Assembly: GCF_006345805.1 (NCBI RefSeq)
Contig: NC_043001.1
Span: 121,086,001-121,150,000, forward strand
Reading direction: 5' to 3'
Length of the DNA stretch: 64,000 nucleotides
DNA from: Octopus sinensis
Taxonomy: Eukaryota
The position numbers were made by a program, and so were the translations under genes. The first letter of the stretch is position 1, and each line of letters begins with the position of its first letter. The notes beneath the pieces were generated by a model that saw only the letters and a program-made list of their open reading frames with translations, was not told the DNA's origin and searched no databases. This document shows, one piece after another, positions 1,334 through 61,960 of the stretch.

Positions 1334-1500
1334 ATAATTATAACAATGAGGGTCTTTGCAACAAGTTGCTAGTTACAAATACTGTTGTCTGTGGGGACAT
1401 TTTTGTAGTAAAAGAAATAACAGTCCTCTGGCTGCTATTTCTAATACTTTCGGTGTGTGGTCTAGCAACTCGTTGCAAAGACCCTCATTGTTATAATTAT
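1334..1500. repeat. inverted repeat, ~39 bp arms, in a TA-flanked unit
   Basis: ataattataacaatgagggtctttgcaacaagttgctag versus ctagcaactcgttgcaaagaccctcattgttataattat. Confidence 0.88.
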
Positions 1501-1763
1501 ATATACTTTTACCGAATATGGTCCTTTTCCATATCGAAACACTACTTGGTGAAATTTGTTGACTTTATTAAATTAATTATATATCACCCTTTATCTGTAT
1601 TGTATATATATATATAAGAGCAAAGTTTTGGTCAGTTAGCATCTGAACCACACGACCTCATGTTTCTAAGATTCATATCTACATCTTTATCTGTATATTT
1701 ACCTTCCCTAAGATGTTATTAATTGATTTGAAAACTTTTATATTATTGGAAAACCTATATAAA

Positions 1764-1849
1764 TTAGCTGAAGGTTACTCGGCATCTTAAATCTGCTGTA
1801 ATATTTACAGCTTTTAATAAAATGTTGTAGTATGAAACAATTGTACTAA
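1764..1849 (+). ncRNA. hammerhead-like motif, diverged relative of 57247-57337
   Basis: ttag-CTGAAGG-ttactcggcat...atgttgtagtat-GAAA-C-aatt-G-TA^ctaa. Shares loop sequence (tgctgtaat...cttttaataaaa) with the 57 kb copy. Confidence 0.7.
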
Positions 1850-2053: not shown

Positions 2054-2548
2054 GCGCGTGCATACACACACATACATGCACAGACAACATGCATTACGTG
2101 TATGTATATGTAAGCGTGTTCGCACGCATATAAATGTATGTATGTTACCAAATAGCACCTTACTTTAGCCGCCATCCCTGGTGCAGTATAAGGGTATTCT
2201 AGCCTTTTGTATTCATCTGTCCCTCACATTAGCAGTAAATTTTTAAGGTTATACAACCTTCCACACTCTAATTCTCTATTTCAAATTATTCCTATTTATA
2301 TTCTCTTATTTATATACGTTTCTTCGAATATTGAAAGTTAAAATATAAAAGAGTTACTTCCCTTATCATCCCTCTTCCTTTAATATTAAGTAGAACACCA
2401 AAAGTTATCAAGCTACTATGCTACTTGCGCTTCATCTGATTTTCTGGTTACATTGACCGGTGATTTTTTCAGTATGTCTATATTATAGTGAAACGCTGAC
2501 AGGCCGTTTAGTTGGCTGAATACTGAAGAATAATGTACACAAGTTTAC

Positions 2549-2603
<55 letters not shown>

Positions 2604-2720
2604 TTTATGTTGCATAGAACTGAATCAAACTTATTAAATAATATATATATAAATTTTACCAAATGTGATGTCACTTTCTTTCGTTGTCCAGTCACTCGTA
2701 TTTCTGTATGTGTGTATATA

Positions 2721-2795
<75 letters not shown>

Positions 2796-3611
2796 CAGGG
2801 GAGAAAGAGGGTGTGGTATAATTATGTACATTTTAATTTTCTGTTAACTGATAAAGATTAACATGCCATTTTAATCAATTATCTTCGAATACATTTTGCT
2901 GCAGCTAATTAACTATAAAACTGAATATTTTTCATCCGTAAATTTTCCAAAGGTACTGACCAGTTAGTTATAATGTGTGTGTGTGTGTTTTAGTAACTAC
3001 ACTTATACATGCTTTGTAATTATAACGAAGGTAATTTTCCTGCTAAGCGATCAGTAGAGCGCTCAATGGAAGTAGAAATAAATCAGGTTTAGTTGTAATA
3101 ATATGATATTTAATACAGCTTAAAACAAAGACATATGTGCAAATATAATCAACCATATAATCAAATGGCGGTGCCCCAGCATGGCCACAGCTCGTGAGCT
3201 GAAACTAGAATCAATCAATCATATTTTGAAATAAATGCATTACATGCTTTATACCTTTCCTTGGCACGGTCGTAGCAGGTATCACAGATGAAGACGGCGT
3301 ATGTCCATAGATTTCTTTAAACGCCTGACTGCTAGAAATCGTTTTGACTAGATTTTATTTTTGTTCCTTTGCCCTTGATATCATTACTCTAAACTTGATT
3401 CCTTGCAACATATGTTGAACTCGCTGCTAATGGCTTTGTTCCAAATGAAATATTTTCTTCATAATTGCCAGGCATTTATTTCTATTAACAACTATTGCTG
3501 CTCATTGAAGTACAATATGGAAACATGCATGGTAGATACGTACACAAATGTATATATGTGTACATATATACATCTGCGAATGCGTGTAAACATGAATATA
3601 TATATATATAT

Positions 3612-4008
3612 CGTAATGAGGTAAAAAAAACCCAAGGCAGTGTAGATTTTAGAACATTTATAAATAGGTCTTACAGCTGTTTCCAGGATATTTATTATAT
3701 CCCTTCACTGGAGACTGTGTCAGAAGATGGTTAAGCAATAGTTATTCTAGATAAGATATGAAATAGAGAGTGAGGTGGAGGAATGGAAATAGATGTGAGA
3801 TATGCAGGGATACTGTATATATCTATTTTCATTGCTCCACCTCACTCTCTATTTCGTATCTTATCAAAAGTAACTATTGCTTAACCATCTTCTCACAACG
3901 TCTCCAATGAAGGGATATAATAAATATCCTAGAAACAGCTGTAAGACTTTATATTTATAAATGTTCTAAAATCTACACTGACTTGGTTTTTTTTTTAATC
4001 TCATAACG
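3612..4008. repeat. diverged inverted repeat, ~185 bp arms
   Basis: 3612-3794 versus 3821-4008, with many substitutions between arms. Starts at a (TA)n tract. Confidence 0.9.
3900..3947 (+). ncRNA. degenerate hammerhead motif inside an inverted repeat
   Basis: gtct-CCAATGA-agggatat-aataa-atatccta-GAAA-C-agct-G-TA^agac. Mirror copy at 3668-3715 (-). Confidence 0.6.
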
Positions 4009-4146
4009 CTGATATATGGCCTAAGTTGGATCACTTATTCGCATAATCACCGAACCTGGAACTTAACTATGGTCTATCCGTAGCACTTATTCAGCATTGC
4101 CTGACATCTTTGGCTCTCACTGACACATTGCCTCTCACAACCTCTA

Positions 4147-4245
<99 letters not shown>

Positions 4246-4970
4246 ATATATATATCTATCTATCTATATATATATATATATATATGCGCATAGACACATA
4301 TATGCACAAGCATGTATAGATGTGAGTGTATAAAAGCATTTATATGTATGCATATATATGTATGAGCGTATTTATGAATGCACACACACATATATATATA
4401 TGCATTTACGAGCACTCGTGTGTGTGTGTGTGTGTGTGTATATATTTATGTTTGTATGCATGTATTTATGTGTGCAGTAGTAGTAGAAAAGAAAAACGAT
4501 TAAATACCCCAGGCTTTTTATATGTCTGTGTAATTAGCAAATGTTAAAATTGTGGTTTAGTTTTTTAATTATATTATTTTTGTCCATTTTATTTATTTCC
4601 GGCGAAAGTAAAATGACGTTACTATCTGCTGTTTTATTGTTTAAGATGTAATTTGCGTTTAAAATTCTCCAATCTTTGTATCATTCATCGTATTTTAAGG
4701 CCTTTTTCTCCCTATTCATTATCCCTTCTGGAAATTTTTACCATTTCTCCGGTAAATTCACCGCCGTATCATGACGTCACAGCGTGCAAAAGAAGAGGGG
4801 ACATAGAGGGAGGGGGGGGAGAGATCTTATTAACATTTATTATTTGGAAAACTGCTGCTAAATCTTTATGCTGCTACTGCTATGACTCAACTATGAGTTC
4901 TACTATTGGTTAGAATAGCTTGACATTTCTCTTCCCTCCCATACATACCTCATAGATTTGCGCTGTCTAG

Positions 4971-9593: not shown

Positions 9594-12364
9594 AGAGAGA
9601 GAGAGAAAGAGAGAGAGAATCCCATGCTAAAGATTCAAATGAATACAAACGAAGTGAATAATAATTACTCTTGCCAAACACACAAGTACACGCACACACC
9701 CATGAATGTGTATGTATGTATGTATGTATGTATGTATGTATGTATGTATGTATGTACGTACGCACGCGCATTTATAAAAGAACCCTAAGTTTGCTGTTCG
9801 TTATATTACATTAAAAAATGGGACTTCTGAATTCTTGCTTGAATTCTTGCTGTTCGATAGTTTATTGTGGCTTGCAAAAATATCAGCTTTTCGACTTGCC
9901 GACTCTACATTGATTGATGTTCCAGACATAATCCGTTTGAAGCAATTCCAATTCCATCACACTACTACTTAGAGAAAGATATTACCATCATTCTTATCCG
10001 ATTCCACTCGCTTGTTTAGGCGGTTACTCTGCTAGAAATAGTAGCCAAATCTCCTTCAAACCACATACTGCTGTATTTTCAAAAAATAGTCACATGACAT
10101 TATGTCTGGGGGAAAAGCAGCAAAGAAGACACGAGAGTCATGGTTGGACCACCTTTTTATTATAGATCAGTGCAGACAAGGATAAGAGTTTTCAACCTGG
10201 GATTATACAAAGAAAAACTAGGGGTCTGTGAACTGAGTTCAAAATTTGCAAAATAGACAGAATTGTTGGCATTACAAATTAGAAGTCGCATACTTTAGAG
10301 GAAAGGAAAAAGTTACGGAATTGAGTGGTAAAAATATAGAAATAAATAAACTGAAATTTTTGGTCAAAAATATTTTTCCAAATATGAAACTTGGAATGCT
10401 TTAAAAAATATAACTGAAGGAAAAAAGCTGTCCTTTTCTTTCTGCCTGTGGTATGAAATCCTGGCTAAAAATTGTTGAAAACATCGGGAGGGCATTGGAA
10501 AATTCTTTTAAATAAAAAGGATCTTTGGAAGTGAAAAGGTTGGGATCCGTTGGGGGGGGGGGTTAAACGACAACAGCAGCAACAGCAACTCATAGGTTTG
10601 TGCGTGACCTTGTGTCTCGGAGAGAAATCGATTACTTGTACTTTTATTTTTTTTTTCTCTCTCTCTTTTTATTCTTCAGCGGTCAAAGATTTATTGATCC
10701 AAAGTATTGATATGAAAATGATCGGGCTCATCTCGCTACATGTTGCATTGCGGTTTAGATAATAACATACATATATTTTTTGTATTGTTAGTTTCCCAAT
10801 TGCAGATGCTGATATCAATAGGTTGCCGGATCGAACTAACAGCCGAAAATCGAAAATCCGTATCCTGTTAGCACTATACTGTACAAAAAGAAATTCTCTA
10901 CTAAGAACCGATTTAATTAAATAGGTTTAATTTCCTTCCAGGGCTATTCTGTCAGTGTCTTCAATGTCATCAACTGACCAGGAAAATGTTGCCGTACTCT
11001 AGTTTACGAACTTATTCTATTATTTTATTTGTTTGGGCTATAGCAAAAGAGGTTATGTGGTAGCCGAGGTTGAAAAAACTGAAGGCAGACACTTTCCTTA
11101 TTCGGTCAAGCCCTCACTGATTTTCTTAAGTTCCCCTTGAAAAAGAGAGTGAGGACGGAGATCTGGTACCTCTTCTCCGGAATGTTTGCAAAACAACCGG
11201 CCGAGGTGAATGAATCTACTTTCAGCATACGTCTGTGAATCGGTGAACGACGGTCAGGAGAAGGGTAATTCTGAATTAGTGGACTTTCCTTGCCTGATTC
11301 TAAATCAGTGGACTTTCCTTGCCTGATCCTTGTTGGAGATGCTCTTCTGTAAAGTGGGCAGCATTGTCACTTATTTGTATATTGATTACTTTTTGTCTCA
11401 TTCTATATATTTTTTCATTCCATTTTTGTGTAACCTGTACTTTTATATAACCTGTTTTTGTAATGTACTCTTTATTAAATGGCGCTGTGGTAAATAAAAG
11501 AAATTATTATGATTATTATTATGCCGCTCTAAGAATACGTCTGTAGCTGGGAGAACGACATCCACACAATTTAGTGATCAGGGTGATTTTGGCTTTCTGA
11601 GCTTCTTCGAATTCGACCTAGCTGGAGCTCCTCTTGCATCAGGAGGATTGCATGATCATCTTTCATTATTTGTATATTATGTATACTTATATTTCGCGCG
11701 CGCGTCTTCTCATTCGATTTTTTATGTAAATCCCCACACTTTGTCTTGTCTTGTATTTATCTTCTTCGTGTGTCCCCCTGGTGGAATTAAAAGAACGTCT
11801 TGGAAAAGAAAATGCCTTTCACCATTTATTCCAGTAGTTTCCATCTGCCCAAATTTGCTCACATGCAAAATATGATAAAATCCACTGCCCGAGATGGGAT
11901 CGATCTTGGAATCTTAAGACAGCTGAACGAACTTCGTAACCACCTATCCATGCTTGCGCTCATATTATACACTTCAATAAATTTGAACGCGAAAACATCC
12001 TCACTCCTACTTTTTTTAGAATATCGGTTCTTTGTGACTATATGAAAATTCGATTATAGAATGACTAATCGCATAAGCTGGAGACAATTCATCTTGCTCT
12101 CTTGCTGCATAAACGTCACCAGTTAATTTGTCGGCTTCTCGTTCAAACCACACTCTTTACTCATCACAACGGTCGATTTATATCCATCTATTACTCTACC
12201 TATCTTCGAGTTAATGATGGAGTCTCTGTATGGACGCTCGTTTCGGTCGGTTAAAAAAAGCAGTCAAGCAAACATCATCTAAAACAAAACCCAAGAAACA
12301 TGAAAACTGAAAAAGTTAAACATCTTATTGAATCTAATAACATCCTTATAACAAATCATACCAT

Positions 12365-12593
12365 TATAGCTTTGTTAAGCTGTACACAAACAAACTAGTG
12401 GAGACATACATTTACCAAACGTTTATAACTTTAGGTACAATAGGGTTTAAGTCGTCAGTTATTTTTGTATAGTTCACTCAGAATCGTCCCAAGCTCGCTG
12501 CTGACATTCTTCTGTCTTCATTCTCCTCCCAGAGGTCCTTTTCTTTCCTGCTGACCAACTTCCTAGCTAGCCCGCAGCGAATCCTTCCCTATA
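12365..12593 (-). repeat. 3' LTR of the Gypsy element
   Basis: Direct repeat of 16414-16604, with about 80 bp of extra internal sequence. Confidence 0.88.
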
Positions 12594-12828: not shown

Positions 12829-15800
12829 TTAGAATGTTTTATCTCCCGGATGTATGACTTGATATGGATCATCATAGGGTGACTGGAAGAGTCTTCGTCG
12901 TGTGTCACGTCGAACGAACACAAAGTTAGCCACGCGGAGGTGATTTGGTACGAATGATCTGGGTGTACCGTGTGTCGTCATGGGAACAGGGCGCAACTGG
13001 TCCACGCTGTCTCTCAGTTGAGCGAGGTACCTTTTGACATCTGGGTCTGAATTCGTATTCGGAAGGAACTCTCCTGGCACTGTGAGGGGAGCACAGTACA
13101 CCATTTCCGCGGAGGAAGTGTCGAGATTTTCTTTTGGGGTAGTGCGAATTCCCAGCATTACCTATGGGAGTTGGTCGATCTAATTTGGCCCGTTAAGTCT
13201 GGTTGTCAGTGATTCCTTCAGGCGGCGATGAAATCTCTCCACTAATCCGTTGGCCTGTGGGTGGTAGGCTGTTGTGTGGTTCATTGTGATTCCGAAATCA
13301 CAAAACGCATGTCATTCCACAGCTTTGAGGTGAATTGTGGATCCCGATCGGATGAGATGCTGTTTGGGACGCAGAAACGGGCGACCCAGTTCGCGATGAA
13401 AGCTCGGCTGACTTCTTGTGTTTCTGCGGAGAGGGATAGGTTCAGGCCAACAGGTGTAGCGGTCCACCAACGTCAGTAGTTACGAGCAGCCCTGTGAATG
13501 TGGTAGGGGGCCAACAAGGTCGATGTTGACATGGCTGAATTGGCCTAGGTGGTTCATAGTTGCCGAGGGGTGCTTTGGTGTGTTGATGGCCATGGTTTGT
13601 TGACAGGGGGTGCAGGACATGGTCCAGTCCCCGATTTGCTTGGCCATACCGTACCAGATAAATTTGATTGACAGCAGCCGCCGTGTGGCTTTAGTACCTG
13701 GGTGGGAAGTCCGTGAATGATGTCGAGAACTTTCTTGCGCCGGGCTGATGGGACGATCGGTCGTGGCTTGCTAGTGGATACATCACACAGAAGGGTTGTG
13801 CCGTTGGAGCTAATGTGTACATCCTGCAAAGAAAGTGATGTGATGGCAGTGCGGTAGGCCCTGATCTCATCATCTGTCTCTTGAGTTGCAGCCATAGCTT
13901 CGTAATCCAAGTCTTCCGTTATTGGTGTTAGGTAGGTGTGAAAGCAGGTAAGAGCACGAGAGAGTGCGTTGGCAACTGGGTTGCCCTTGCCGGCTATGTG
14001 TTGGATGTCTGTGGTGTACTCGGAAATTACCGATAGCTATCGTTGTTGGCGTGCAGACCAAGGCTCCGAGAGCTTGCTCATAGCAAAGGTGAGTGGTTTG
14101 TGATCTGTGAATACTGTACACATGAAGCCTTCAAGGAAATACCGAAAGTGGCGGACACCTAGATGGACAGCCTGTAATTCCCTGTCGAAAACACTGTATT
14201 TCTGTTCAGGGGGTCGTAGTTGTCGGCTGAAGAAAGCGAGCCGTCGCCACTGACTGTTGATGTAATGTTCCAAAAGGCCCCCAATAGCTGTGTCGGATGC
14301 GTCAACTAGGAGTGCAGTCCGAGCTGACATGTGAGGATGTGACAGCATGGTTGCTTGGGCCAGGACTTGTTTTGTGGATTCGAAGGCTGAAGTCATTGTA
14401 ATATCTCACTCCACCTGTCTTTTTGTACCTTCTTTTGACAGTGCCTTGTGTAGGGGTCTCATCACTTTTGCTCCAGAAGGGATGAAGCGATGGTAAAAGT
14501 TTACCATGACCACGAATTGATGTAGAGCCTTGCTTGTGGTGGAGCGTAGAAAGGATAGGATAGCTTTTACTCTTCCTGGCAGAGGTGTAGCGCCGGCACT
14601 TTTGATTCGATGTCCCAAGAAGTCGATTTCTGTTGCACCAAAAACGCACTTGGCGAGGTTGATTACTAAAGCATACCGTTCCAGCCTCTCAAAAAGAGTC
14701 ATTAGGTGCTTCTTATGTAGCTCTGTGTTTGGGCTTGCAATGAGGATATCATCTAAGTATGCAAAGACAAAATCGAGACCTCTACACACAGTATCCATCA
14801 GGCATTGGAAGGATTGTGCCGCGTTTTTCATCCCAAAGGGTGTACGTAGGAATTCGTACAGACCGAAAGGAGTGATCACAGCGGTTTTCGGTACATCGTC
14901 ATCTTGTACTGGTATTTGGTGGTATCCCCGGATGAGGTCAACCCGGCTAGCTGGGCTGAAAAATCTTGTATATTTGAAATGGGGTAACGGTCAGGTGTCG
15001 TGTCGTATCCGCGTTGAGATGGCGGTAATCTCCGCAGGGTCGACAACCTCCGTTGGATTGGGGGGAGGCACATGCAGGGATGATGACCAGGACTGCTTGA
15101 TTGGCCAACTATACCCAATGCCTCCATATTGTCGAACTCGGCCTTTGCGATTGAAAGTTTGTCTGGTGATAGACAACGTGCGCGGTTGTGCACGGGGGGG
15201 GCGGTGGTGGAGATGTGGTGTTGTACCCCGTGGCGGGCTGTAGGTTTGGAGAATCTCGGAGTGGTGAGATTGGGGCGACTAACAAGAAGATCCGAGAATT
15301 CGTTCTTGGTCTGCGAGATTATTACTATGGGGAAGGGGGCGTGACATGTGCAGATGTTGCAAGAGGCACGGAAGCGTATGTGTTGTTGCCGAGGAGTCGT
15401 CTTCTCCGCAAATCCACCAGTAACAAGTGTGCTCGAAGAAAGTCTGCACCGATTATGGGCTGATGGAGATTATGGGCGATGGTGAATGCCCATGTGTATT
15501 TTCGTGAGCCGATGTTGAGGGAAAGGGTGCGACGACCGTATGCCTCGATTGTGGACCCGTTGATGGCTGTTAAAGTTGGCTACGCTTTCCGTAATCACGG
15601 AATCACGCTGACATCTGCTCCTGTGTCGATGAGGAACTTGCATCCGGAGCTGCGATCGCGGACAAAGAGGAGCATTTGGTCATGTCTGCCGACCACCAGG
15701 GTGTTCAATGGCAGCCGGCCCTAGAGTTTCCCTAGGTCACTGGTGAAGGGGTCCTGAAGTTACATATTGTTTACATTTTGTCGCCTTTTTTCCAAACTTT

Positions 15801-16366
15801 GCATGATAGAAGCACAGGTCATCATGCTTAACCCTACCCCGTCTCGGAGCTGACCCTATGGCGTTGACCTGCACACCACTAGATAAAAAATGCCTGTCGG
15901 CTGCCTTTGCTACTTGCCGCAGGTCCTTGATTTCGGTCTGAGTTATGAGGACCTGGACCTGGGGTGGCAGCTTGCGGAGGAATATTGCTTTAAACAAAAA
16001 GGAAGGTGACTCACCGGATGGGGGGGGGGGAACTAATGCCAACATCTTGTCCATCAGTTCTGAAGTCTTGGAATCGCCTAATTCCTCCTCCATTATCCTG
16101 GCAGCCGCTTCTCTTTCCCTTCGTCGGAATGTGTCCACTAGCCTCTCTTTCAATATGGCATATTTTTCTGGTGGTGGGGGATGGGTTAGAGTATCCAGCA
16201 CCCTCGTTGCCGTGTCTTCCTCAAGTGCCGCAACAACGGGCGAGTACTTTTTTTTGGTAGGCCGTTATCTTGTTTATATCGAATTGAGCTTCGGCCTGCG
16301 CGAACCACAGCTCAGTCCTCTTAGACCAGAACTGTGGTAGCCTCAGTGGTGTTTATTGCTAGCCAT
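12829..16366 (-). pseudogene. frameshifted gag-pol of the Gypsy element
   Basis: gag LPQFW...LWFAQAEAQF and CFYHAKFG; protease FLIDTGADVSVI near 15600-15640; RT PFGMKNA and YLDD (ORF 14406..14879); RNase H DASD...RELQAV (14037..14396); integrase pieces including QANGLVERFHRRLK. Split across frames. Confidence 0.92.
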
Positions 16367-16398: not shown

Positions 16399-16411
16399 CG
16401 TCGGGTCACCA
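16399..16411 (-). promoter_or_regulatory. primer binding site, tRNA-Trp-like
   Basis: Minus strand reads TGGTGACCCGACG, 2 nt inside the 5' LTR. This is one C short of the tRNA-Trp PBS TGGTGACCCCGACG. Confidence 0.75.
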
Positions 16412-16413
16412 GT

Positions 16414-16604
16414 TATAGCTTTGTTAAGCTAGACACAAACAAACAAACTAGTGCAGACGAGAATACATTTACCAAAGGATCACTGCTGACATTCTGTTTT
16501 CGTTCTCCTCCCGGAAGTTCTTTTCTTTCCTGTTGACCAACTTCCTAACTAGCCCGCAGCGAAGTATCTGTCTACAGTTCGTCTATCACGAATCCTTCCC
16601 TACA
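16414..16604 (-). repeat. 5' LTR of the Gypsy element
   Basis: Direct repeat of 12365-12593 (tatagctttgttaagct...aatccttccctaca) with indels. Confidence 0.88.
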
Positions 16605-34949: not shown

Positions 34950-35802
34950 TAATTTTCACTTTTTTCCTAAAATTTTTCTTAAGTTTCCTAAGATATTTTA
35001 AGCACAAATGACCATCCCCTTTTAAGGTTTGGATATATACGAGAGATACTTTTCTCAGGGTGTCTAGTACATATTATTTACAATTTGGTGAACTGTGCAG
35101 TATCTTGTGCAGGTATCTTCAACCCAAGCATTTGTCAGTTATAATGAACACCTCCAGTTTTTAACCTTTACATATATGAGAGCTAATATTCTCTTTGTCT
35201 ATATCATCAACAAGAATAACATTCCCATGACATCTAGTATGTATTTGTTCCAGATTGATGATGCATGTAGCACTTTCAGCAAGTGCCTTCTACCATAACG
35301 TCATGTAGACCTAAGTTTCATGAGTTAAGTTGGGTAAACAAAACTAAAATTCTGTAGAACTCTACAGGCTGACCTGTATCTGTTGTTGGGTAGTAGACTC
35401 AATCCACGGCATGTTTTAACCCCACCTCTTGGCCTTCGTGTTTCTATTAGCAAAGGCCAATCTGTCACAGACATTTGGACCAGGTTTCTAGTCTGGGGAT
35501 AACTTGATATCTTTATTTGCAGCTTTCTACCATATCAACACATAAATTAAGATTTTCTCTCTGTTTCATTAGAAGAAAGGACATTTCCTTCTCCCCGACT
35601 CCCGGTCCTCCAATTTTTTTTTTTTCAATTGCTACAATATATGATAAAGTTTCTTGCTCAGAAATACAAATTAAGAACCTTCTATGGGTTGAGCAAAAGA
35701 TCTGTGAAGTTGTATCACAAAATATTGTCCTCTTGACCATTTTGCCTGTTGATTAGTTTTCAAATATAACAACTGTTGTTTTTGTGTGTGTATATATATA
35801 TA

Positions 35803-35840
<38 letters not shown>

Positions 35841-36125
35841 GCTTCCTTCAGTTTTCCTCTACCAAATTCCCTTGCAAGACATTTGTCAGACAGGGCTAGT
35901 GCTGTGGGACTGAACCCAAGGTCAGGTTGTTGAGAAACAAATTTCTTAAACCACACGGTTATGTCCATGCTGGAATATGAAATTGTATAATAAACAGTAA
36001 GAAAAGAAGTCTGAGGTGGGAGGCACATCCAACATGTAAAAATTTAAGTAACGTTTCAACCCATACGAATATCTAAAAGAAAATTTAAAAGTTGTTTATT
36101 TTTTTTCTTATATTTTCTTTTTTAA

Positions 36126-36992
<867 letters not shown>

Positions 36993-41849: not shown

Positions 41850-43616
41850 AATAAAGTGCACCTCTGTGATCTAGAGGCTAACTGCATGTGTCCCTCACCA
41901 GCATCCAGGTGGAGAAATCCCCACTGCAGCCTTGATGATGTTGATAAAGTTTAAATCTAAGGTAAAGTTGTCTTCTGGCTAATAATATGCATGTCATTCT
42001 GCAAGAGCACATCCTTTGGTACACCATGTTGGAATTAAAATGCAACTGGATGCTGTACATTGATTGCATTGTTCTGATTGGATATTGGTTTAGGTAACAA
42101 GCATCTGATATGTTATTGGTGTGTGAGAGGTAGTGTCTTAGTGTGTGGCCCTGCCTTATGAATCTGACGGAGACACCAGGTCTCTTGATGCAGTTTTTTA
42201 GCTTGTTCTCTACCATCTCTCTGTAGTATGGTAGATTAACATAGACCCAGTGTTTACTCTTCTGTTTCTTTCTTCCTCTGCTATTGATGTTGTTGTTATC
42301 CAGGCTGTCATTGTTGATGCTGTTGCTGTTTTTGCTGTAATTGTTGCTGTAGTAGAATGACAACACTACTCTAGGCACAGATGCTCAACAACAAAGACCA
42401 TCTCAGAGATATTAAACTTTACCCATATGAAGAAGAGTTCAGCAAATCACCAACCACAGAGGACTACTTCAAAAACAAAAGTTGAAAGACTATGTCAGGA
42501 CCTCCTGAGAACCATGATGTCTGCTAACAGACAATGACTGACCTCTAACCTTACACCTAAGATAACCACATTTGACTCTTTAAAAAATTAAAAATTAAAA
42601 AATTATATATACCTTGCCATTGAACAAAGGGGAAGAATTCTGTGCAATTGACAGGGACACCTAAGATGAAGCAGTTAGGTCCCGTCACTCCCAGGATAAT
42701 ATCTACACCTCATGTGAATAAGAGATTGCAAAAAGAGTGGAGAACCAATGGAACAACATATCCGAAGCATACCACCAGCTGATGCCATACGAACCATAGA
42801 GGAACAGCTAGAAAGCAGCCAGAAATTGGCAGCAGACTTTCCACCAACAAATCTCATAACCATCCTTGAATTCTGCTCTGCCAACATCTACTTCCAGAAC
42901 AAAAACCCCACATACCAACAAGGCAGCAGCCTCCCAATGATATCCAGACTAAGAGGGATCTTGACTACTCTTATCTTGGATGACCTGGAATGCAAGGCTT
43001 TCCATGCAGGATGGCACATCTCATTATATCGAAGATACGTCAATGATGTCTTTGCCCTAGCTTATTCCAGAAACAAGCAACCAGGATCCATCATATCTTC
43101 AACAGCTTCCGCTACAGCATCCAATTCAACATGGAACACCCGACCAGATATGGTTCACTAATTCTCTTGGATTTCAACATTGCATTACCTTGGGGCATGC
43201 AACAATATGAATCTTTGAGAAAAAGACAAAGAAAAACATCTTCCTCCATTTGTATTCAGCATATCCAAAGGCATTGAAGTACAACATAGCCTTTAACGAA
43301 CTCAGCTACCACCTAAGCAGGTGTGATGAAGCCAAAACAGAAAGCTCAATATGGATGCATTTCACTATGATACTATATCTAAGTGGATATGAGCCACATT
43401 TTAGAGAGAAAGCATGTGACACACTAAGCATGCAAGCATGAGGGCACCACGAAAAGATTGTCTGTAAGACCAAATGGAATAGCAAAACCAACAACAGCCA
43501 ATATCACAGACTCACTTAAAACATGGCACTGTACAAACACATAGTAGCAACAACTACAGTGACCACAACTACTACTACTACTACTGCTGCTACTACTACT
43601 ACTACTACTACTGCTG

Positions 43617-43653
<37 letters not shown>

Positions 43654-43760
43654 CACATCAAGAACAACGGTCACAGAAACAACATCAGCAGCAACAACAA
43701 CTTCAATAGCAACAGAAGAGTAAACACTGGGTCTACGTTATTCTGCCATACTAAAGAGAA
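41850..43760. mobile_element. decayed Penelope-like element: RT remnant on +, inverted GIY-YIG portion on -
   Basis: + ORF 42748..43161 ILEFC..NIYFQ..TYQQ..LPM.S.L..IL..L...LYRRYVNDVF resembles PLE RT. - ORF 41878..42378 VNLPYY...MVYQ..CSC resembles the linker and GIY-YIG. 43710-43757 is the reverse complement of ~42211-42260. Confidence 0.72.
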
Positions 43761-44739
43761 ATTGTAGCATCAAGAGATTTCATCTCTGGTCTCTGTTGAG
43801 TACCTTTTCTTTCTTTTGTTCACTCACTTGTGTGTGTGTGGTGTGTGTGTGTGTGTGTGTGTGCATGCATGTATGTATGTACTTGTATGTAGGTGTACAT
43901 GCATACATGTATGTATGCTTGCATGCATGTGTGCAAATGCATCACAACTTTTTTTCTGTCTTCATTGCTGTGTGATTTGGGGATTCAGCCCTACTGCATG
44001 GCATGTTGAGCTAGAGTCTTCAATGATAGCCATGAGTCAACTAAAGTCTTAGTAGACAGAAGCTAACAGAAACTTGTCATATATACATGTCATCGGCCGC
44101 CTCAACTCATATCCAAGTAGATCTGTAGACGGTGATTGAGCTTTGTCATCTTGATGGGTGTGATGTATACCATTGCCTTAGGTGGCTGCACAGGCTAAGA
44201 GCAATATAAAAGAGCTGGGGGCATTTATAATATATACATGTATATACACATATATACATACATAGAGTCAACAGATGAAATCCAGAGATGTTCAATATAG
44301 AAAACACTTAGTAGCACTCAAATGATTTGAACTTTCTCGAGGACTATATGTGTGTGCGTGTGTCTGAGTAAGTATACATGTATGCCTGTGCATGTGTGAA
44401 CCATTTTGACATCACATGATAACTGCAAACAAGTATCACCATCATACAAGTGATGTTACTTGTTTTGACTTTCCCATGCAAAAAAAAGCCAGCCATTGGA
44501 AAATATAATTTTGCTTGTAAACAGGTAAGTGTTTGGCGACAAAAGGGCATCAGGCCATTAAAAAACTGCCTCAACAAATTCCATCTGACCCTTGCAAGAA
44601 TGAAAGAGTGAACATATAACCATGAAGATGGTGATACACACACACACACACACGTGTGCCAATATGAATTTTTGGCACTTGTACCGGTGGCACATGAAAA
44701 ACATTCGAGCACGTGAAAAATATTCGAACGAGGTCGTTG

Positions 44740-49741: not shown

Positions 49742-50209
49742 GCTAAAAACTTTTTAAGGCTATTTCTAATACTTAAAGAAAATCTCTCTCATATATAGTG
49801 TTTGCTTAATTCAACTCAAAAAGTTTGGGGGTAAGGACATCGAAAAATCAAATGCTAAGGTTATTCGAGAACGTACGTTTCAAGATTAGTCAAAACAACA
49901 TTTATCTATCATCGGCTCAGAAATTCCTTGGTTTGGATTTGGAAACACTGAAAATAAGAACATGGCCCTTTCGAAGATCTTCGAAAGGGCATGTTCTTAT
50001 TTTCAGTGTTTCCAAATCCAAACCAAGGAATTTCTGAGCCGATGATAGAAATGTTGTTTTGACTAATCTTGAAACGTACGTTCTCGAATAACCTTAGCAT
50101 TTGATTTTTCGATGTCCTTACCCCCAAACTTTTGTGAGTTGAATTAAGCAAACACTATATATGAGAGATTTTCTTTAAGTATTGAGAAAGCCTTAAAAAA
50201 GTTTTTAGC
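49742..50209. repeat. spacerless palindrome, ~235 bp arms
   Basis: Centre gccctttcgaaga|tcttcgaaagggc at 49977/49978. The arms differ by a few indels. Confidence 0.95.
50032..50088 (+). ncRNA. hammerhead-like motif with CCGATGA core
   Basis: ttctgag-CCGATGA-taga...atctt-GAAA-C-gtac-G-TT^ctcgaa. Mirror copy at 49864-49922 (-). Confidence 0.68.
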
Positions 50210-50377
50210 TGCTATTTCTAATGAGTTCAGTATGCGGCAAAGTAATTTATTTTACTAAGCCCTTTTATATAATGTAATAATTTGAATTCGCCTTGAATGG
50301 TCCCTTTGCATACTGAACACTTGGTGAAATTGATTAATAATTAATTAATTTTGCCCTCAATTGTTGAAATTATTATA

Positions 50378-50748: not shown

Positions 50749-51107
50749 CTACACCACACCCATTGGGTTTCTTTCAGTTTCTGTCTATAAAAAACCCATT
50801 CATGAGGCTTTAATCAGCCTGAGGCTATAAAAGAAGCTACTTGCCCAAGGTGCCATGCAGTGGGACTGAACCCAGTACCGTGTTGTTTTCTTTTTACCAT
50901 TTCTCTTTTCCACAGCCATACTGGGGTACCACCTTGAGAGTTTTAGTTGAACAAATCAGCCCTATTACTTATCTTATTTTAAAGCCTGGTACATTTTCTA
51001 TCAGTCTCGTCAAAATGAGGGTAAAAAATTGGATATTAATTTAATAACATCAATTTAAACACCAGTGGCCTAGCGTATAAAAGACTGAGATTCAGTAAAT
51101 ATTATTA

Positions 51108-51320
51108 ATACACAACTATGAGAGAAAATCCACTATGTGGACGCTCTTACGCTAGATATAGATCCGCAAAGGGACTCAACCACTTGTTCTCAAGAAATAA
51201 TTCAACACTTGGTGTGATGAGTTATTTCTTGAGAACAATTCTTAGTGGTTGAGTCCCTTTGCGGATCTATATCTAGCGTAAGAGCGTCCATATAGTGGAT
51301 TCTTTCTCATAGTTGTGTGT
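51108..51320. repeat. inverted repeat, ~95-100 bp arms
   Basis: cacaactatgagagaa...gaaataa versus ttatttc...ctcatagttgtg, ending in (TA)n. Confidence 0.9.
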
Positions 51321-55334: not shown

Positions 55335-55339
55335 GTAAA

Positions 55340-56237
55340 GAAAAATAAAGAAAAATAAGTTGGCTAGCAGCAAGCTGTTTCACCTCATACCGAAGGAATT
55401 AGAAATGGCAGTCAAAGACCGTTTTTTCCATTTCTATAAGTGGAGGTTCCAAAAACGAAGGCCCTTGCGGCTCACATACACAAAACCGGAGTGGCAAATA
55501 CACGAATTCAGTCACTTACCGTTAATAGCGAACACGGTGTTTCTGGATCACAAACATATAAAAAAAAGGTTGAGTTTGAATTCCTTCATCAGCGCTATAT
55601 TCGTTAGCTTTATCAAATTATTTTGTCGTATTTACATACCGAAATTTACTGGTAAATAATTGTTGGTTACATGAAAATTATTTACCATTTTTATTGTATT
55701 CCTCATTCCATTACGATTACCCAGAAGGCGCGCATGGCAGAATTTTGGAGGGAAAATTTACGTTCCCAGTCGTTACTTGGTTTTAACATCTGCGCACTTC
55801 CCCCCACTATCTGATGTCGCTGGGTCAGAAGTGAGGGCTGGTGGCATTTGATAAAGCTAACGAATATAGCGCTGATGAAGGAATTCAAACTCAACCTTTT
55901 TTTTATATGTTTGTGATCCAGAAACACCGTGTTCGCTATTAACGGTAAGTGACTGAATTCGTGTATTTGCCACTCCGGTTTTGTGTATGTGAGCCGCAAG
56001 GGCCTTCGTTTTTGGAACCTCCACTTATAGAAATGGAAAAAACGGTCTTTGACTGCCATTTCTAATTCCTTCGGTATGAGGCGAAACAGCTTGCTGCTAG
56101 CCAACTTATTTTTCTTTACTATATACTGAACCTTACAAAGGTCTTGACAATTATTTTGTCGTATTTACATACCGAAATTTACCGGTAAATAATTGTTGGT
56201 TACATGAAAAACCACAGGAAAATTATTTACCATTTTT

Positions 56238-56243
<6 letters not shown>
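55340..56243. repeat. ~530 bp unit with ~90 bp terminal direct redundancy and an inverted ~280 bp partial copy
   Basis: 55340-55618 is inverted relative to 55846-56120, which explains the twin ORFs 55360+ and 55703-. 55617-55700 repeats at 56149-56243. Confidence 0.92.
55866..55939 (+). ncRNA. type I hammerhead ribozyme
   Basis: atagcg-CTGATGA-aggaattcaaac...gtttgtgatcca-GAAA-C-accgt-G-TT^cgctat. Mirror copy at 55525-55598 (-). Confidence 0.8.
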
Positions 56244-56280
<37 letters not shown>

Positions 56281-57366
56281 GCGAGAAAGAAGCAACAAGA
56301 ATGGATAGGTTTTTAGTACGATCGTTTCATACAAGGACAGGTTTTATTAAAAGTTGCAAAGATTACAGCATATAAACGAGTCCCGTACTCATCAGCTAAA
56401 ATACATGTAAGTTCTCTAGACATCCTAGTGTTTGAGGCTATACTCATGAAGTAATGTAGATAATTAAACAGATTTCTAAAGTTCATTAAAGTTCCTTAAA
56501 GATGATGTATAGTCTTATCACAGAATTTTAAAAAAGTTTTGATAGCATCACAGAGAAGGTGACCTAATCCATATGAATTTCCATAGATATGATGAGGGAT
56601 TATATACTCACAGAAGACAATTTATCCATTGTTATTAGCATTACAGAGAGGGTGAATTAATCCTTTGTATATATGCACAGATTCCAAAGGTGTAGATGTA
56701 AATTTCCAGAGAAATGGAGATGAATTTCATATTCACAGGCGATAAATTTTACAATGGTTGAACACAATGAGGTAGGTACCAATCCTTGTTATATGATTAG
56801 GTGTTTTGCCTTGTTTATATGATTAGGTGTTTAATATGGCAAACACCTAATCATATAACAAGGATTGGTACCTACCTCATTGTGTTCAACCATTGTAAAA
56901 TTTATCGCCTGTGAATATGAAATTCATCTCCATTTCTCTGGAAATTTACATCTACACCTTTGGAATCTGTGCATATATACAAAGGATTAATTCACCCTCT
57001 CTGTAATGCTAATAACAATGGATAAATTTGTCTTCTGTGAGTATATAATCCCTCATCATATCTATGGAAATTCATATGGATTAGGTCACCTTCTCTGTGA
57101 TGCTATCAAAACTTTTTTAAAATTCTGTGATAAGACTATACATCATCTTTAAGGAACTTTAATGAACTTTAGAAATCTGTTTAATTATCTACATTACTTC
57201 ATGAGTATAGCCTCAAACACTAGGATGTCTAGAGAACTTACATGTATTTTAGCTGATGAGTACGGGACTCGTTTATATGCTGTAATCTTTGCAACTTTTA
57301 ATAAAACCTGTCCTTGTATGAAACGATCGTACTAAAAACCTATCCATTCTTGTTGCTTCTTTCTCG
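56281..57366. repeat. near-perfect inverted repeat, ~530 bp arms, ~27 bp spacer
   Basis: 56281-56810 is the reverse complement of 56838-57366. The spacer partly re-copies adjacent arm sequence. Confidence 0.95.
57247..57337 (+). ncRNA. type I hammerhead ribozyme, intact core
   Basis: ttttag-CTGATGA-gtacgggac...gtccttgtat-GAAA-C-gatc-G-TA^ctaaaa. Stem I ttttag/ctaaaa. Palindromic stem III ACGATCGT. Mirror copy at 56311-56401 (-). Confidence 0.85.
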
Positions 57367-57503
57367 CTTATAATCACCCCACATTACTGTATTGTTAAAT
57401 CAGTATTGTTTTTTTTGGTGCATCTAAGTTAGGTACCATATTCAAGTAAATTTTTTAAATTAACTTGAATCTTTATTGCTCTTTGTATATATATATATAT
57501 ATA

Positions 57504-59692
57504 TAACTTAGAATAACTTAGAAAGGTTTTGACCAGTATTGGCCCAGGCCATGTTTAACTTAATAGCACCACCTGGCGAAGTCTTTCAATTCAGGATTTG
57601 GGCACCAAGGCCCATTCGAGCAGAGAGTTATTGTTTGCGGAGACATATCCGGGTGTGGGTGGTTTGTCCGAGACTGTTTGAACGAATTTGTCCAAAGACT
57701 TCTTGAATTTTGTGTGGTCAGTTTCTTTTTTGACGTGTCCTGGTGTAATGTTGAAGAGAGCGGGTCCAATTGAGGTGAAATAGTTGTGCCGTATTGTCGT
57801 TATGTGATGCAATTTAGATTTTTGTTGTGGACGGATGGCACGTGGTTCAAGCCTTGGATGTATTTTGAAGGTGATGCCAACATCATTCGGACAGATAATG
57901 TAGCGTTCAGTAGTCAAGGTCTGACATGCCATCTATCTTTTTTGTTATTGACCTTTGGGGAGCTTCAATTCTCATAATATTTTGTTTTGTGTAGGGAGAC
58001 CACAGTGGACAGCAGTATTCAAGGTGGGGTCGGGCAAAAGTGAAGAGAAGGATAATAGTGTGGGAATCTCTCGACTGGAAGGTTCTGAGAACCCAGGAAC
58101 ACATTCTGCGGGCCATGTCAACTTTGCTGCTTATATGTGTAGCCCAGCTTATGTTATTGTCCACTGGTACTCCCAAGTCTCTGATGTTGTTGGATGCCAT
58201 GAGAATTTCTCCAGAAGGAAGAGAGTATGGGAGTTTCAGAGCGTCCTCCCTTCCAAAGTGGATCAGTTCGAATTTGTCTTCGTTTAGTAACATGTTATTC
58301 TTTTCCGCCCATTGGACAACAGCCAGTAGGTCTGACTGAAGGCTTATTCGGTCATCCACGCCATTGATGACCTTCTGGAGCTTGGAATCATCAGCGAAGG
58401 TTCTGATGTTACTGTGTTTGATGGTGTCAGTAATATCATTTATGTAGATGATGAAGAGAAGTGGGCCCAACACAGTGCCTTGTGGGACACCACTGCTGAC
58501 TTTGGCTGGGCTGGATTTGACTCCTTCGACTACAACATGTTGGGTTCTGTTAGACAGGAAGCACTTGATCCACTGCAGCAGCTTTCCAGTGACACCAATA
58601 TTGGACAGCTTTCTCAGAAGGATCTTATGATCAACCCTGTCAAAGGCCTTGCTGAAATCAAGGTAGATGACATCAGTGTTGGAACCCTCTCCCAAGGCTC
58701 TCAAAATGTCATCAAAATGATGCAGTAGCTGCGTCAGGCAATCTCCCCCATTACGGAATCCATGCTGGTTGGAGTTCAGCATATTATGACTCTCAAGGAA
58801 GTGAGTCATACGCGATCTCAGCACCCTCTCAAATACCTTGATGATATGAGAGGTGAGTGAGATTGGACGGTAATTCACGGCAAGCGATTTGTTTCCTTTT
58901 TTGAAAACTGGGACAACAGACTGGGATAGAAGGTCTTCTGGTATATATCCAGCATCCAGTGAGTTCCACCACAGATTTGCTAGAGGGCGTGCAAGTTGGT
59001 TTTGACACATCTTCAAGACACAAGCAGGGAACCTATCGGGACCTACTGCTGAATTATGCTTCATTTCCTTTATTGCTGCTAAGACATCAGGAGCGCCAAA
59101 GGTTATGTCCGATAAGTGTATTGGGGAGTAACATCACTGATACAGCCCAGATCAGTCATATCAGGATTGCTGAAAACAGAGCAATATTGTTTCTGCAATA
59201 TCTCCCATGGTTTTGGCATTGTCTTGAAGAGTACCATTTTCATCAATCAGAGGGCCAACAGTAGAACCAGTGACTCTGTGTTTTTTTGCAAATGAAAGAA
59301 CACTTTGGGATTGAGTTTGATCTTCTCAATGGCCCAGGCCTCTCAGCTCTTCGCTGACTATTGATGATAGACATCATGTTGTTTTGGAGTTTATGTTTTT
59401 TAATCTCTAGCGACGAGATGGCAGTCAGGTTGGTGTGTTGCTGTTGACAGTATTTCAGCTTGTTGATCTTTTTGTTAATTCTTTTAATTTTCCTGATGAG
59501 AGATTTTCTATTTCTAGGGATTCAACACTTAGATTTGTTTGCAGATCTTAATGGGGTGTGTTTTGCACATATGTTCTACAAATGACTGCCAGGATTGTTT
59601 GATGTTAGTGGGTGTGTATGTGTGTGTGAAGGACCAATCGACTTGTGCAAGATCATTATTGATTGCTTCCCAATTTGCATTGTGGAAATCCA
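57504..59692 (-). mobile_element. 5'-truncated non-LTR retrotransposon (CR1/L2-group LINE)
   Basis: RT ORF 57907..59064 has YRPISLTS, DFSKAFD, GVPQGTVLGPLLF and FADD. The C-terminus continues in ORF 57591..57932. Short repeated tail (TTCTAAGTTA)2. (TA)n on both sides. Confidence 0.9.
57591..59064 (-). pseudogene. LINE ORF2 reverse transcriptase remnant
   Basis: 385-aa RT ORF plus a frameshifted 113-aa C-terminal ORF. Confidence 0.9.
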
Positions 59693-59709
59693 TATATATA
59701 TATATATAT

Positions 59710-61960
59710 ATCAACAATCAAGGAACGGCCATAATAGGCCATTCACCCACTAGAAATAACAGCCAAAGCTTCAACCGCAAATAAAAGTCAATTCCGTAAA
59801 CCAGGAGAAAATTTAAAAAACATTTACCCTGTAATTTCTTATACGATGCACCGTTTCATCTGCTGTTAATGGTAAACTAACCTGATTAAATTAATCAAGC
59901 CAATCTTCCATAGGCCCTCAGATTCTTCAGTAAGAAATAGCCCAAGTCGGAACAGATATTTTCACGAGGCATTTCCGACCCTGCCAAGGTAATATCTGAC
60001 CTAAAATTTTCAAATCATCGCACTCGCGCCAAATTTATCGGCAGCAAATAAATTTGGCGCGAGTGCGATGATTTGAAAATTTTAGGTCAGATATTACCTT
60101 GGCAGGGTCGGAAATGCCTCGTGAAAATATCTGTTCCGACTTGGGCTATTTCTTACTGAAGAATCTGAGGGCCTATGGAAGATTGGCTTGATTTAATTTA
60201 ATCAGGTTAGTTTACCATTAAACAGCAGATGAAACGGTGCATCGTATAAGAAATTACAGGGTAAATGTTTTTTAAATTTTCTCCTGGTTTACGGAATTGA
60301 CTTTTATTTGTGGTTGAAGCTTTGGCTGTTATTTCTAGTGGGTGAATGGCCTATTATGGCCGTTCCTTGATTGTTGATGTTGAACTTAAAAATGGTCTAT
60401 GACTATTTAATTTTTTCCCACTAGGCCGCTGGTGGCAAAAAAATTCTACAAAATTTTTTTGCCACCCTATATTGATTAATTATGAATTTTCTGGTTAATT
60501 CCGTAATGGAATCGACGGCTTATATTTATTTGCTGCCGATAAATTTGGCGCGAGTGCGATGATTTGAAAATTTTAGGTCAGATATTACCTTGGCAGGGTC
60601 GGAAATGCCTCGTGAAAATATCTGTTCCGACTTGGGCTATTTCTTACTGAAGAATCTGAGGGCCTATGGAAGATTGGCTTGATTTAATTTAATCAGGTTA
60701 GTTTACCATTAAACAGCAGATTAAACGGTGCTTCGTATAAGAAATTACAGGGTAAATGTTTTTTAAATTTTCTCCTGGTTTACGGAATGGACTTTTATTT
60801 TCGGTTGAAGCTTTGGCTGTTATTTCTAGTGGGTGAATGGCCTATTATGACCGTTCCTTGATTGTTTATGTTGAACTTAAAAATGGTCTATGACTATTTA
60901 ATTTTTTCCCACTAGGCCGCTGGTGCAAAAAAAATTCTACAAAATTTTTTTGCCACCCTATATTGATTAATTATGAATTTTCTGGTTAATTCCGTATGAA
61001 TCGACGGCTTATATTTATTTGCTGCCGATAAATTTGGCGCGAGTGCGATGATTTGAAAATTTTAGGTCAGATATTACCTTGGCAGGGTCGGAAATGCCTC
61101 GTGAAAATATCTGTTCCGACTTGGGCTATTTCTTACTGAAGAATCTGAGGGCCTATGGAAGATTGGCTTGATTTAATTTAATCAGGTTAGTTTACTACCA
61201 TTAAACAGCAGATGAAACGGTGCATCGTATAAGAAATTACAGGGTAAATGTTTTTTAAATTTTCTCCTGGTTTACGGAATTGGCTTTTATTTGCGGTTGA
61301 AGCTTTGGCTGTTATTTCTAGTGGGTGAATGGCCTATTATGGCCGTTCCTTGATTGTTGATGTTGAACTTAAAAATGGTCTATGACCTATTTAATTTTTT
61401 CCCACTAGGCCGCTGGTGGCAAAAAAATTCTACAAAATTTTTTTGCCACCCTATATTGATTAATATGAATTTTCTGGTTAATTCCGTAATGGAATCGACG
61501 GCTTATATTTATTTGCTGCCGATAAATTTGGCGCGAGTGCGATGATTTGAAAATTTTAGGTCAGATATTACCTTGCAGGGTCGGAAATGCCTCGTGAAAA
61601 TATCTGTTCCGACTTGGGCTATTTCTTACTGAAGAATCTGAGGGCCTATGGAAGATTGGCTTGATTTAATTTAATCAGGTTAGTTTACCATTAAACAGCA
61701 GATGAATCGGTGCATCGTATAAGAAATTACAGGGTAAATGTTTTTTAAATTTTCTCCTGGTTTACGGAATGGACTACTTTTATTGCGGTTGAAGCTTTGG
61801 CTGTTATTTCTAGTGGGTGAATGGCCTATTATGGCCGTTCCTTGATTGTTGATGTTGAACTTAAAAATGGTCTATGACTATTTAATTTTTTCCCACTAGG
61901 CCGCTGGTGGCAAAAAAATTCTAACAAAATTTTTTTGCCACCCTATATTGATTAATTATA
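59710..61960 (+). repeat. tandem array of ~490 bp hammerhead-containing units (~3.9 copies) preceded by an inverted partial copy
   Basis: aatttggcgcgagtgcgatg recurs at 60051, 60542, 61031 and 61525. 59710-60050 is the reverse complement of part of the unit. (TA)n on both sides. Confidence 0.95.
60149..60253 (+). ncRNA. type I hammerhead ribozyme in unit 1 of the tandem array
   Basis: tttctta-CTGAAGA-atctg...cagat-GAAA-Cggtgcatc-G-TA^taagaaa. Other copies: 60640-60744 (GAAA>TAAA), 61129-61236 (intact), 61622-61726 (GAAA>GAAT), 59835-59937 (-, intact). Confidence 0.85.

Follow-up and report, generated by a model that had tools for sequence, protein, structure and literature searches.

A 64,000-nucleotide stretch of Octopus sinensis DNA (the window) contains non-coding repeat units that share a structured motif, which raises the question of what this motif is and what it does for the units that carry it. 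An earlier note had reported five copies in units that it took to be unrelated, and had offered three possible roles: an RT-recognition signal, a processing signal or another ribozyme. We find all five copies present. Their fold covaries and their insertions end at two discrete places, as befits the conserved structured cis-element that the note had supposed. On our analysis the motif is probably the covarying 3'-terminal module of retrozymes of the Penelope-like element (PLE) type, recruiting a PLE RT-endonuclease in trans and setting two start points for it.

Fold and covariation of the module

The module is built around a long-range stem, P1, which closes a junction containing a hairpin (P2), an A/U-rich strand and one or two small hairpins, and which is followed by a terminal hairpin, P4. 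The long-range stem had already been recognized, but the extent originally given to the motif was too small, since P2, the small hairpins and P4 also belong to it. Insertions of the units stop at one of two places ~100-125 nt apart, either just behind P2 (site 1) or just behind P4 (site 2).

The family A module occupies 1430-1602 of the forward strand, with a 5' sequence box at 1430-1443, P1 (1448-1457 with 1530-1539) enclosing P2 and P3, P4 at 1548-1589, and a site-2 end that passes into (TA)n at ~1602. A short inverted arm covering only the P2 region can be read from the sequence on the reverse strand at 1333-1372, where its site-1 end meets (TA)n. The unit B insertion (49742-50375, forward) comprises a palindrome (49742-50209) plus a direct arm, and its module spans 50207-50375, with the box at 50207-50220, P1 at 50225-50235 with 50308-50318, P4 and a site-2 end. 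Family E lies on the reverse strand (51010-51165; P1 arms 51155-51148 and 51077-51070, P4 and the site-2 region), and its inverted partner arm on the forward strand (51235-51320) has a site-1 end entering (TA)n. The family C module (56028-56242, forward) contains P0 (56028-56064), P1 (56070-56078 with 56168-56176), two small inner hairpins, P4 and a site-2 end, and is accompanied by an inverted arm (55335-55618, reverse) with a hammerhead core at 55592 and a site-1 end. Family D forms a tandem array of 3.9 units of 491 nt (60048-61957, forward), the final unit having a site-2 end at (TA)n, and has an inverted arm (59712-60038, reverse) with a hammerhead core at 59930 and a site-1 end. The family D module (60324-60483, forward) consists of the box, P1 (60335-60342 with 60417-60424), P2 (60344-60365), P3 (60390-60408) and P4 (60431-60466), with site 1 at ~60374-60378 and site 2 at ~60478-60487; it recurs as further forward-strand copies at 60815, 61307 and 61799. 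Short inverted arms are located at 55413 and 59764 (reverse) and at ~51260 (forward).

P1 comprises 8-11 Watson-Crick pairs in 11 of 12 family representatives, a result equalled by 0-7 of 300 shuffles; for the twelfth, family G, 93 of 300 shuffles were as good because the search zone missed its P1 arm. The proposal that the long-range stem changes sequence yet keeps its pairing is borne out, with P1 covarying across 11 divergent families. In a MAFFT alignment of these D/E-type families P1 is 92.9% paired and five of its nine pairs change on both sides, giving 16 both-side cells against 5.7 when shuffled (0/500, in a control that ignores relatedness). Likewise, a five-helix model of 19 A/B-type sequences is 92.4% paired and has 24 both-side cells against 9.7 (0/500, under a control that again ignores relatedness). 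Changes on one side of a stem are, in both alignments, chiefly of the sense-strand G-U kind, the pattern that folding as RNA predicts. A covariance model made from A/B sequences only and run on 616 kb recovers C at 70 bits and D at 45 bits, with a weak match to E (22 bits, E 0.056). The same fold emerges when C, D, G and I, and the window copies of D, C, E and B, are folded as single sequences, and folding is better than for dinucleotide shuffles (z of -7.13 for D, -4.84 for C, -4.57 for B, -3.22 for A and -2.64 for E). When P1 arms are swapped between families, 7 pairs are still reached in 25 of the 114 cross-group combinations; the test discriminates less well because arms are common to A/B and C, and to E and F. 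The position of P3 is not homologous between families, and the inner hairpins vary in number and position. P1 of family A is not cleanly picked by the minimum-energy fold.

An outer pairing of the 5' box with TTGGTGAAA had also been implied. The pairing itself holds up, at 92.5% in A/B, but none of its seven pairs changes on both sides; in D/E-type families it is 95.5% paired with one both-side cell (154/500). Such a stem is possible, yet it shows no covariation in either group, and TGGTG makes more sense as the 5' arm of P4 than as a strand of an outer stem.

Insertion ends and the units that carry them

Among 240 distinct contexts in families AB, C, D and E we located 82 ends at site 1 and 73 at site 2, although a few of those assigned to site 1 are outliers. 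Family G ends, taken from an alignment, fall at site 1 in 11 cases, at site 2 in 12 and between them in one (n=24). Both sites are in single-stranded U/A-rich stretches just behind hairpins, and other A/U-rich stretches between them hardly serve as ends. Junctions into (TA)n at 60374-60379 and 60478-60487 are also present in public runs.

Inverted insertions sit in (TA)n. All 41 scorable tail-to-tail insertions, for which the box and a TA run were required at both ends, pair site 1 with site 2 (AB 10, C 7, D 10, E 14) and none pairs a site with itself, the C and E loci having been collected by queries favouring site-2 arms. Family G follows the rule in two of three tail-to-tail insertions, and E-like families provide two more that do so. 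The exceptions lie outside the 41-pair count: in unit B (49742-50375) the inverted arm breaks off where the box begins, L345 terminates between the two sites, and L299/L300 has both ends on the same strand. The resulting tail of ~100-125 nt is present on one side only.

This anatomy, in which 5'-truncated partial tandems adjoin an inverted copy, is that of Penelope-like elements, and the tandem non-coding units, each with a type I hammerhead, have the organization of retrozymes. Units are ~490-555 nt long across families, and no ORF of at least 120 aa overlaps array D. The motif was originally placed 3' of the hammerhead wherever one is present. Hammerhead-like cores are indeed found upstream in B, C and D, and a correction applies to A and E, whose window copies are cut off before the hammerhead while other copies of both families carry one. 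The unit B hammerhead (50036-50085, forward), identified by eye and missed by a strict hammerhead scan, is a degenerate type I with a CCGAUGA core start and a palindromic stem III. Those of unit C (55863-55950, forward; core 55872, GUU at the presumed cut site) and unit D (60148-60254, forward; core 60156, GUA cut site 60246) are of type I, the cores being damaged in two of the four units of array D. Hammerhead-like cores are also present in C, E, AB and G units.

Because the families intergrade, some are homologous upstream of the motif and all have a common insertion anatomy, the units are related rather than unrelated: they form a single superfamily of retrozymes, non-autonomous Penelope-like elements that carry a hammerhead and have (TA)n as their insertion target. 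This repeat superfamily is very abundant and still young in the octopus genome. A 17-mer from the box has 32,653 genomic matches, part of them from an older repeat, against 5 for a control. The copies of that older repeat that we saw have the 5' box and lack P1 and P4, and it appears to be an old relative. Family G keeps the fold and both end sites without the sequence box, indicating that structure, not the box, tracks the ends.

The motif does not look like a captured SINE segment, a possibility raised by the earlier note, although its box recurs in the older repeat described above. In 11 loci holding whole units there is no tRNA or 5S match. Among 150 of 168 Rfam matches listed for the window, none is at gathering score and no ribozyme lies over the module; the 11 loci likewise gave no match at gathering score, in a test that is insensitive to long-stem variants because the hammerheads were missed too. 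A literature search found no prior description of the module, though repeat libraries such as Repbase or Dfam may list these families by a different name.

No public run containing the sequence is catalogued as RNA. In three small runs tentatively taken to be RNA (X1, X9, X14) there are A-to-G differences at 60331, 60337 and 60356; these are found in 0 of 60 distinct genomic contexts and are absent from deep runs X15 and X16 and from X2, X7 and X3. A further A-to-G difference, at 60423, is present in X15 and X16. Such differences are at most a weak hint of RNA editing. Contigs from the public runs contain no splice joint, which is uninformative either way.

Proposed role and rival explanations

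We favour the first of the three roles originally offered, RT recognition, because the two 3' insertion ends map directly behind P2 and P4. The ends agree with the pair of start sites used by the PLE enzyme of Anolis, and the most likely function of the module is therefore RT recognition and initiation. The link to a PLE protein is drawn from the insertion anatomy and the hammerhead, not from homology. A PLE RT-endonuclease supplied in trans would be recruited by the module and would cleave a (TA)n target on both strands. The two hairpins would be kept side by side by P1, and each of the two target 3' ends would prime a cDNA at a site of its own, site 1 for one and site 2 for the other; the two same-sense cDNAs would later be joined by a template switch, producing a tail-to-tail inversion with the tail on one side only. 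Tandem units would arise by read-through or from circular RNA made by the hammerhead. More tentatively, the module may be a programmed twin-priming platform, in which the start sites on the P1-joined hairpins are presented to the halves of a dimeric PLE enzyme, one per cut strand. Were this true, the tail on one side and the inverted copy seen in Penelope-like elements would both be explained, and a portable signal of ~160-200 nt would allow non-coding RNAs to capture a PLE enzyme by shape rather than by shared sequence. The module could account for the long-unexplained tail of these elements.

Both ends might instead be made by RNA processing or termination behind P2 and P4, with the enzyme starting at RNA 3' ends. 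The sites do lie where processing or termination sites might, in single-stranded U/A-rich stretches behind hairpins, and the whole module is present internally in tandem arrays. However, two independent types of RNA end predict same-site pairs, of which the 41 scorable insertions include none, and the Anolis enzyme starts internally whatever the RNA 3' end (PMC11167929); we therefore regard this origin as unlikely. A signal acting as DNA, with hairpins of the single-stranded cDNA or donor locus recognized by the GIY-YIG endonuclease that resolves the intermediate at both sites, seems to us quite improbable. It would suit stems that can pair on either strand, the attribution of the tail to endonuclease-mediated resolution in PMC8557442, and earlier work, cited in PMC11167929, in which endonuclease recognition depended on the tail. 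It is at odds with the sense-strand G-U bias of one-sided stem changes, and later biochemistry places the tail at RT start sites (PMC11167929).

The multi-helix junction adjoins the hammerhead and has a strongly conserved 5' box that may pair alternatively with the 5' arm of P4, at the levels given above, features that a further ribozyme, self-cleaving or ligating and of a novel class, might also have. Yet the alternative pairing does not covary, family G dispenses with the box, the inner hairpins are inconstant, there is no Rfam match, and our alignments reveal no conserved single-stranded core beyond the box; on this sequence evidence the ribozyme suggested by the earlier note is very improbable. 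Least probable of all is pairing that serves general RNA stability, export or splicing control, with ends that merely follow A/U microhomology to (TA)n. A GT donor-like word in the 5' arm of P1, the A/U-richness of both sites and the 5' UTR introns that PLE pLTRs can hold (PMC8557442) are compatible with it, but the A/U-rich stretches between the sites are hardly used, and the one-of-each rule is left unexplained.

A search for an autonomous partner of the proposed trans-acting kind scored at most 150 of thousands of candidates in each genome search, and no ORF-bearing family that we examined had a match to our models R1 and R2 at its 3' end. Within motif-bearing units (L001-L040 and the window) there is no PLE protein match, one match lying outside the array. 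The autonomous families seen have compact ends and tails of ~45-55 nt without the module. Those module matches near PLE ORFs that we inspected are insertions into (TA)n, as with the copies in L096, L360 and L414; the L410 match ends in (TA)n and resembles a lone insertion, and matches in L382, L425, L424, L359, L256, L065 and L114 were examined less closely. As candidate partners, degenerate Poseidon-like copies all had stops or broken frames where listed, and GIY-YIG matches, several families with long intact ORFs and the L098 family likewise yielded no partner. The single Naiad 3' end has in common with the module no more than a short TGGCTGTT word and an end like CCTTTTGA, and the models gave no match at that place.

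PLE enzymes are the closest retroelement relatives of telomerase. To our knowledge, their template choice and the origin of the tail and inverted copy are partly known, from one in vitro system. The natural variation of more than 10 families now provides a covarying structure and a near-strict one-of-each end rule, opening these questions to direct mutational tests. The module further points to a component that non-autonomous retrozymes may require in addition to the hammerhead, and we suggest its use as a compact cargo signal for PLE-based gene insertion.

Comparison with known systems

In L1 twin priming both target strands prime on the element RNA, giving an inversion. In our model an RNA structure, not chance complementarity, fixes the second site; the octopus arms, unlike those of L1, overlap, duplicating the region upstream of site 1.

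The octopus units share their organization with animal non-LTR retrozymes, which consist of tandem non-coding units each with a type I hammerhead and which have been proposed to be non-autonomous derivatives of PLE pLTRs; the portions of these descriptions available (PMC7229834; bioRxiv 10.64898/2026.07.22.740005) contain no conserved 3' module, pair of end sites or inverted-arm rule. Homology of the octopus units to an autonomous pLTR was not found in the families sampled. Penelope, Neptune and Naiad elements have pLTRs, partial tandems, an inverted 5'-truncated copy at the 5' side, a tail at one end and a preference for (TA)n (PMC8557442), and so resemble the octopus units, which differ in having no ORF.

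In Anolis, the PLE protein both cleaves and extends the two strands, and its start points are two internal sites between which the tail lies; it requires the region 3' of the hammerhead, and a dimer is predicted (PMC11167929). Anolis Poseidon PAc thus parallels the octopus module in having two sites 3' of the hammerhead with the tail between them and an AT-rich target, and its need for structured RNA may be likened to the module itself (PMC11167929). In PAc, however, the region lies in the start of the ORF, the tail is 30-40 nt long and the main site is an AC-rich stem loop (PMC11167929), whereas the octopus module is non-coding, has a tail of ~100-125 nt and ends behind hairpins, in a fold that covaries across many families.

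A folded module common to one superfamily

The five motif strings that an earlier note had read from the sequence alone are all present where it placed them in the window, and all five copies fold better than their shuffles (z from -2.64 to -7.13). The motif, here termed the module, combines a conserved 5' word, the box, with the helices P0 to P4. In the common fold an upstream hairpin, P0, which is clear in A/B, C and G, is followed by the long-range stem P1, a short linker and the terminal hairpin P4, with P1 enclosing the hairpin P2, an A/U-rich strand and one or two small hairpins. P1, P2 and P4 were found unprompted by RNAalifold in the A/B-type sequences, and C, D, G and I, each folded as a single sequence, give the same architecture (G and I being families outside the window).

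The covarying long-range stem proposed in the earlier note is borne out by P1, in which five of nine pairs have both-side changes across 11 D/E/F/G/I-type families. Measured against shuffle controls that ignore descent, there are 16 both-side cells in P1 across these families (5.7 shuffled, 0/500), and the five-helix structure of 19 A/B-type sequences, with 92.4% paired cells, contains 24 both-side changes (9.7 shuffled, 0/500). Sliding the P1 partners in the 11 families drops pairing to 19-46%. The outer pairing that the earlier note implies between the box and TTGGTGAAA is possible but without covariation, and may be an alternative state. The suggested Rfam search gave no gathering-score match over the module among the window matches listed, nor in 11 loci.

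The five units, A to E, had been thought unrelated. Module alignment, model matches and bridging families instead place them in one superfamily. A and B align over the entire module with 17 other subfamily representatives, and in a search of 616 kb with a covariance model built from these 19 sequences the recovered copies score 70 bits for C, 45 for D, 34 for a D relative and a weak 22 for E, with the new family G indicated at 27. Intermediate families from further searches bridge A/B, D, E and G. Homology upstream of the motif is significant for some family pairs (the A/B-type group AB with B and with E, at most 1/200 shuffles), borderline for some others and absent for the rest; D, C, E, AB and G carry hammerhead-like cores some 80-170 nt upstream of the motif. 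The word TTTGGCGCG, common to D and E units near the unit start (window 60055-60065; L183, L185), resembles an E2F site and is a possible internal promoter.

The 17-mer TTTGRCTGYYATTTCTA has 32,653 exact genome matches, against 5 for a reversed control, a count that overstates the number of modules because 8 of 40 further box loci are an older repeat with the box but not the rest of the module; all 30 loci returned for the 17-mer itself are module-bearing elements.

Two insertion ends in (TA)n

Copies stop in (TA)n, runs of which are plentiful in the 2.7-Gb genome, at two places about 100-125 nt apart. Site 1 lies mostly 50-73 nt past the box start, just behind P2 (a few outliers among 82), and site 2 mostly 40-63 nt past the P4 start. 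Among 240 distinct contexts, 82 end at site 1 and 73 at site 2, while 74 continue and 11 are unclassified. In 41 of 41 cases the two arms of a tail-to-tail insertion divide sites 1 and 2 between them (AB 10, C 7, D 10, E 14), a count of pairs with box and TA run at both ends from which unscorable pairs were dropped uncounted, and in which the test for C and E is that the other arm is always at site 1, since their loci were fetched by queries favouring site 2. This one-of-each rule is also obeyed by two E-like pairs and by 2 of 3 pairs of family G, which is without the box and keeps both ends (11 at site 1, 12 at site 2 and 1 between, in 24 copies); L299/L300 break it, with both ends on one strand. 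Of the window units, A, C and D obey the rule, B is an exception, and E pairs a site-1 arm with a full arm that lacks a TA run. The same (TA)n junctions occur in public runs (60374-60379 and 60478-60487). A-to-G differences at window positions 60331, 60337 and 60356, seen in 3 of 6 runs guessed to be RNA and in none of 60 genomic contexts or two deep runs, are possibly editing of sense transcripts.

The old box-bearing repeat has window copies at 48 and 10046, with 895 as a possible third; box-like words, from this repeat or truncated members, lie at 48-61, 895-908, 10046-10033, 17758-17745 and 29494-29481, and two of them, when tested, have weak similarity to family E. In 4 of 10 old-repeat copies the stretch that follows the box matches the family E P2 region (at most 2/300 shuffles), the other six falling short of that level, and inspection by eye assigns 13 of the 29 loci of a second pattern to the old-repeat type. 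The repeat is probably an old superfamily member ending at site 1.

The search for an autonomous partner

ORF-bearing families of Penelope-like elements (PLEs) were sampled by GIY-YIG and protein searches, and Naiad by pattern. Exact matches to a 23-mer of the octopus Naiad consensus in print number 161, and on this basis the animal genome is probably that of an octopus. Several sampled families have long intact ORFs and appear Neptune-like, as judged by the cysteine motif before GIY-YIG (PMC8557442) rather than by a tree. The module was not found at the 3' end of any ORF-bearing PLE family sampled, Naiad included. The inspected module matches that neighbour PLE ORFs are insertions into TA runs. 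Two ORF-bearing PLE families have 3'-end pairs of their own, about 45 and 55 nt apart (L371:7015-7075; L252-L269), preceded by variant minimal hammerhead-like cores. Copies on different chromosomes are 100% identical in C and 96-99% identical in D, so a partner should be active now or have been so until recently. It would be either a family outside the sample or a sampled family acting in trans, and this missing partner is the main gap.

Several other observations were made along the way. A short TGGCTGTT word and a hairpin leading into CCTTTTGA before the TA run are common to Naiad 3' ends (L271-L290) and the module families, a likeness that gets no score from the module models. In several copies of the young Neptune-like family at L105, a 479-aa frame (1174-2610) overlaps a 781-aa RT-GIY-YIG frame (2532-4874), which suggests a programmed frameshift or an intron. 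The GIY-YIG matches at L090 and L091 are not PLE fragments and look to us like an SLX1-type nuclease gene; L091, on a small contig of dense gene-like sequence, may be a contaminant. The window itself holds a degenerate PLE reverse transcriptase fragment (42718-43330) and a short inverted repeat within 41878-43767, the fragment's genome relatives all being broken; a LINE reverse transcriptase ORF piece adjoining the D array (57907-59133, minus strand, 408 aa); a broken LTR retrotransposon (13554-16264, with a reverse transcriptase Pfam match) and its probable terminal repeats (12360-12581 and 16408-16563); and another palindromic element (56276-57372) that carries type I hammerhead cores, one at 56395 (-) and one at 57253 (+), and has a weaker relative at 1791-1878. 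The host gene is beta-tubulin-like (exons within 34455-36992).

Proposed role and likeness to known elements

We consider it probable that the motif, which is real and covaries, forms the 3' module of a superfamily of non-autonomous PLEs; its likeliest role is that of a reverse transcriptase recognition and dual-initiation signal. The one-of-each rule suggests separate priming sites, one for each cut target strand. P1 would set P2 and P4 side by side, the arms would be joined by a template switch, and a dimer could have a role in dual initiation.

That retrozymes, non-coding hammerhead-bearing units, are non-autonomous PLE derivatives has already been published (PMC7229834; bioRxiv 10.64898/2026.07.22.740005; both in part), and hammerheads go unmentioned in the portion of the main text available for the octopus repeat annotation (PMC13282606). 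The module and the one-of-each rule were undescribed in our literature search, whose coverage took in few subscription journals. PLE hallmarks are partial tandems, an inverted truncated copy, a one-end tail, a hammerhead and (TA)n targets (PMC8557442, in part). For the Anolis PLE protein, PMC11167929 describes cutting and extension of both strands, a tail bounded by two internal start sites, a requirement for RNA downstream of the hammerhead and a predicted dimer. On the simplest reading of our analysis, the module is the putative equivalent of the Anolis PLE recognition and initiation signal.
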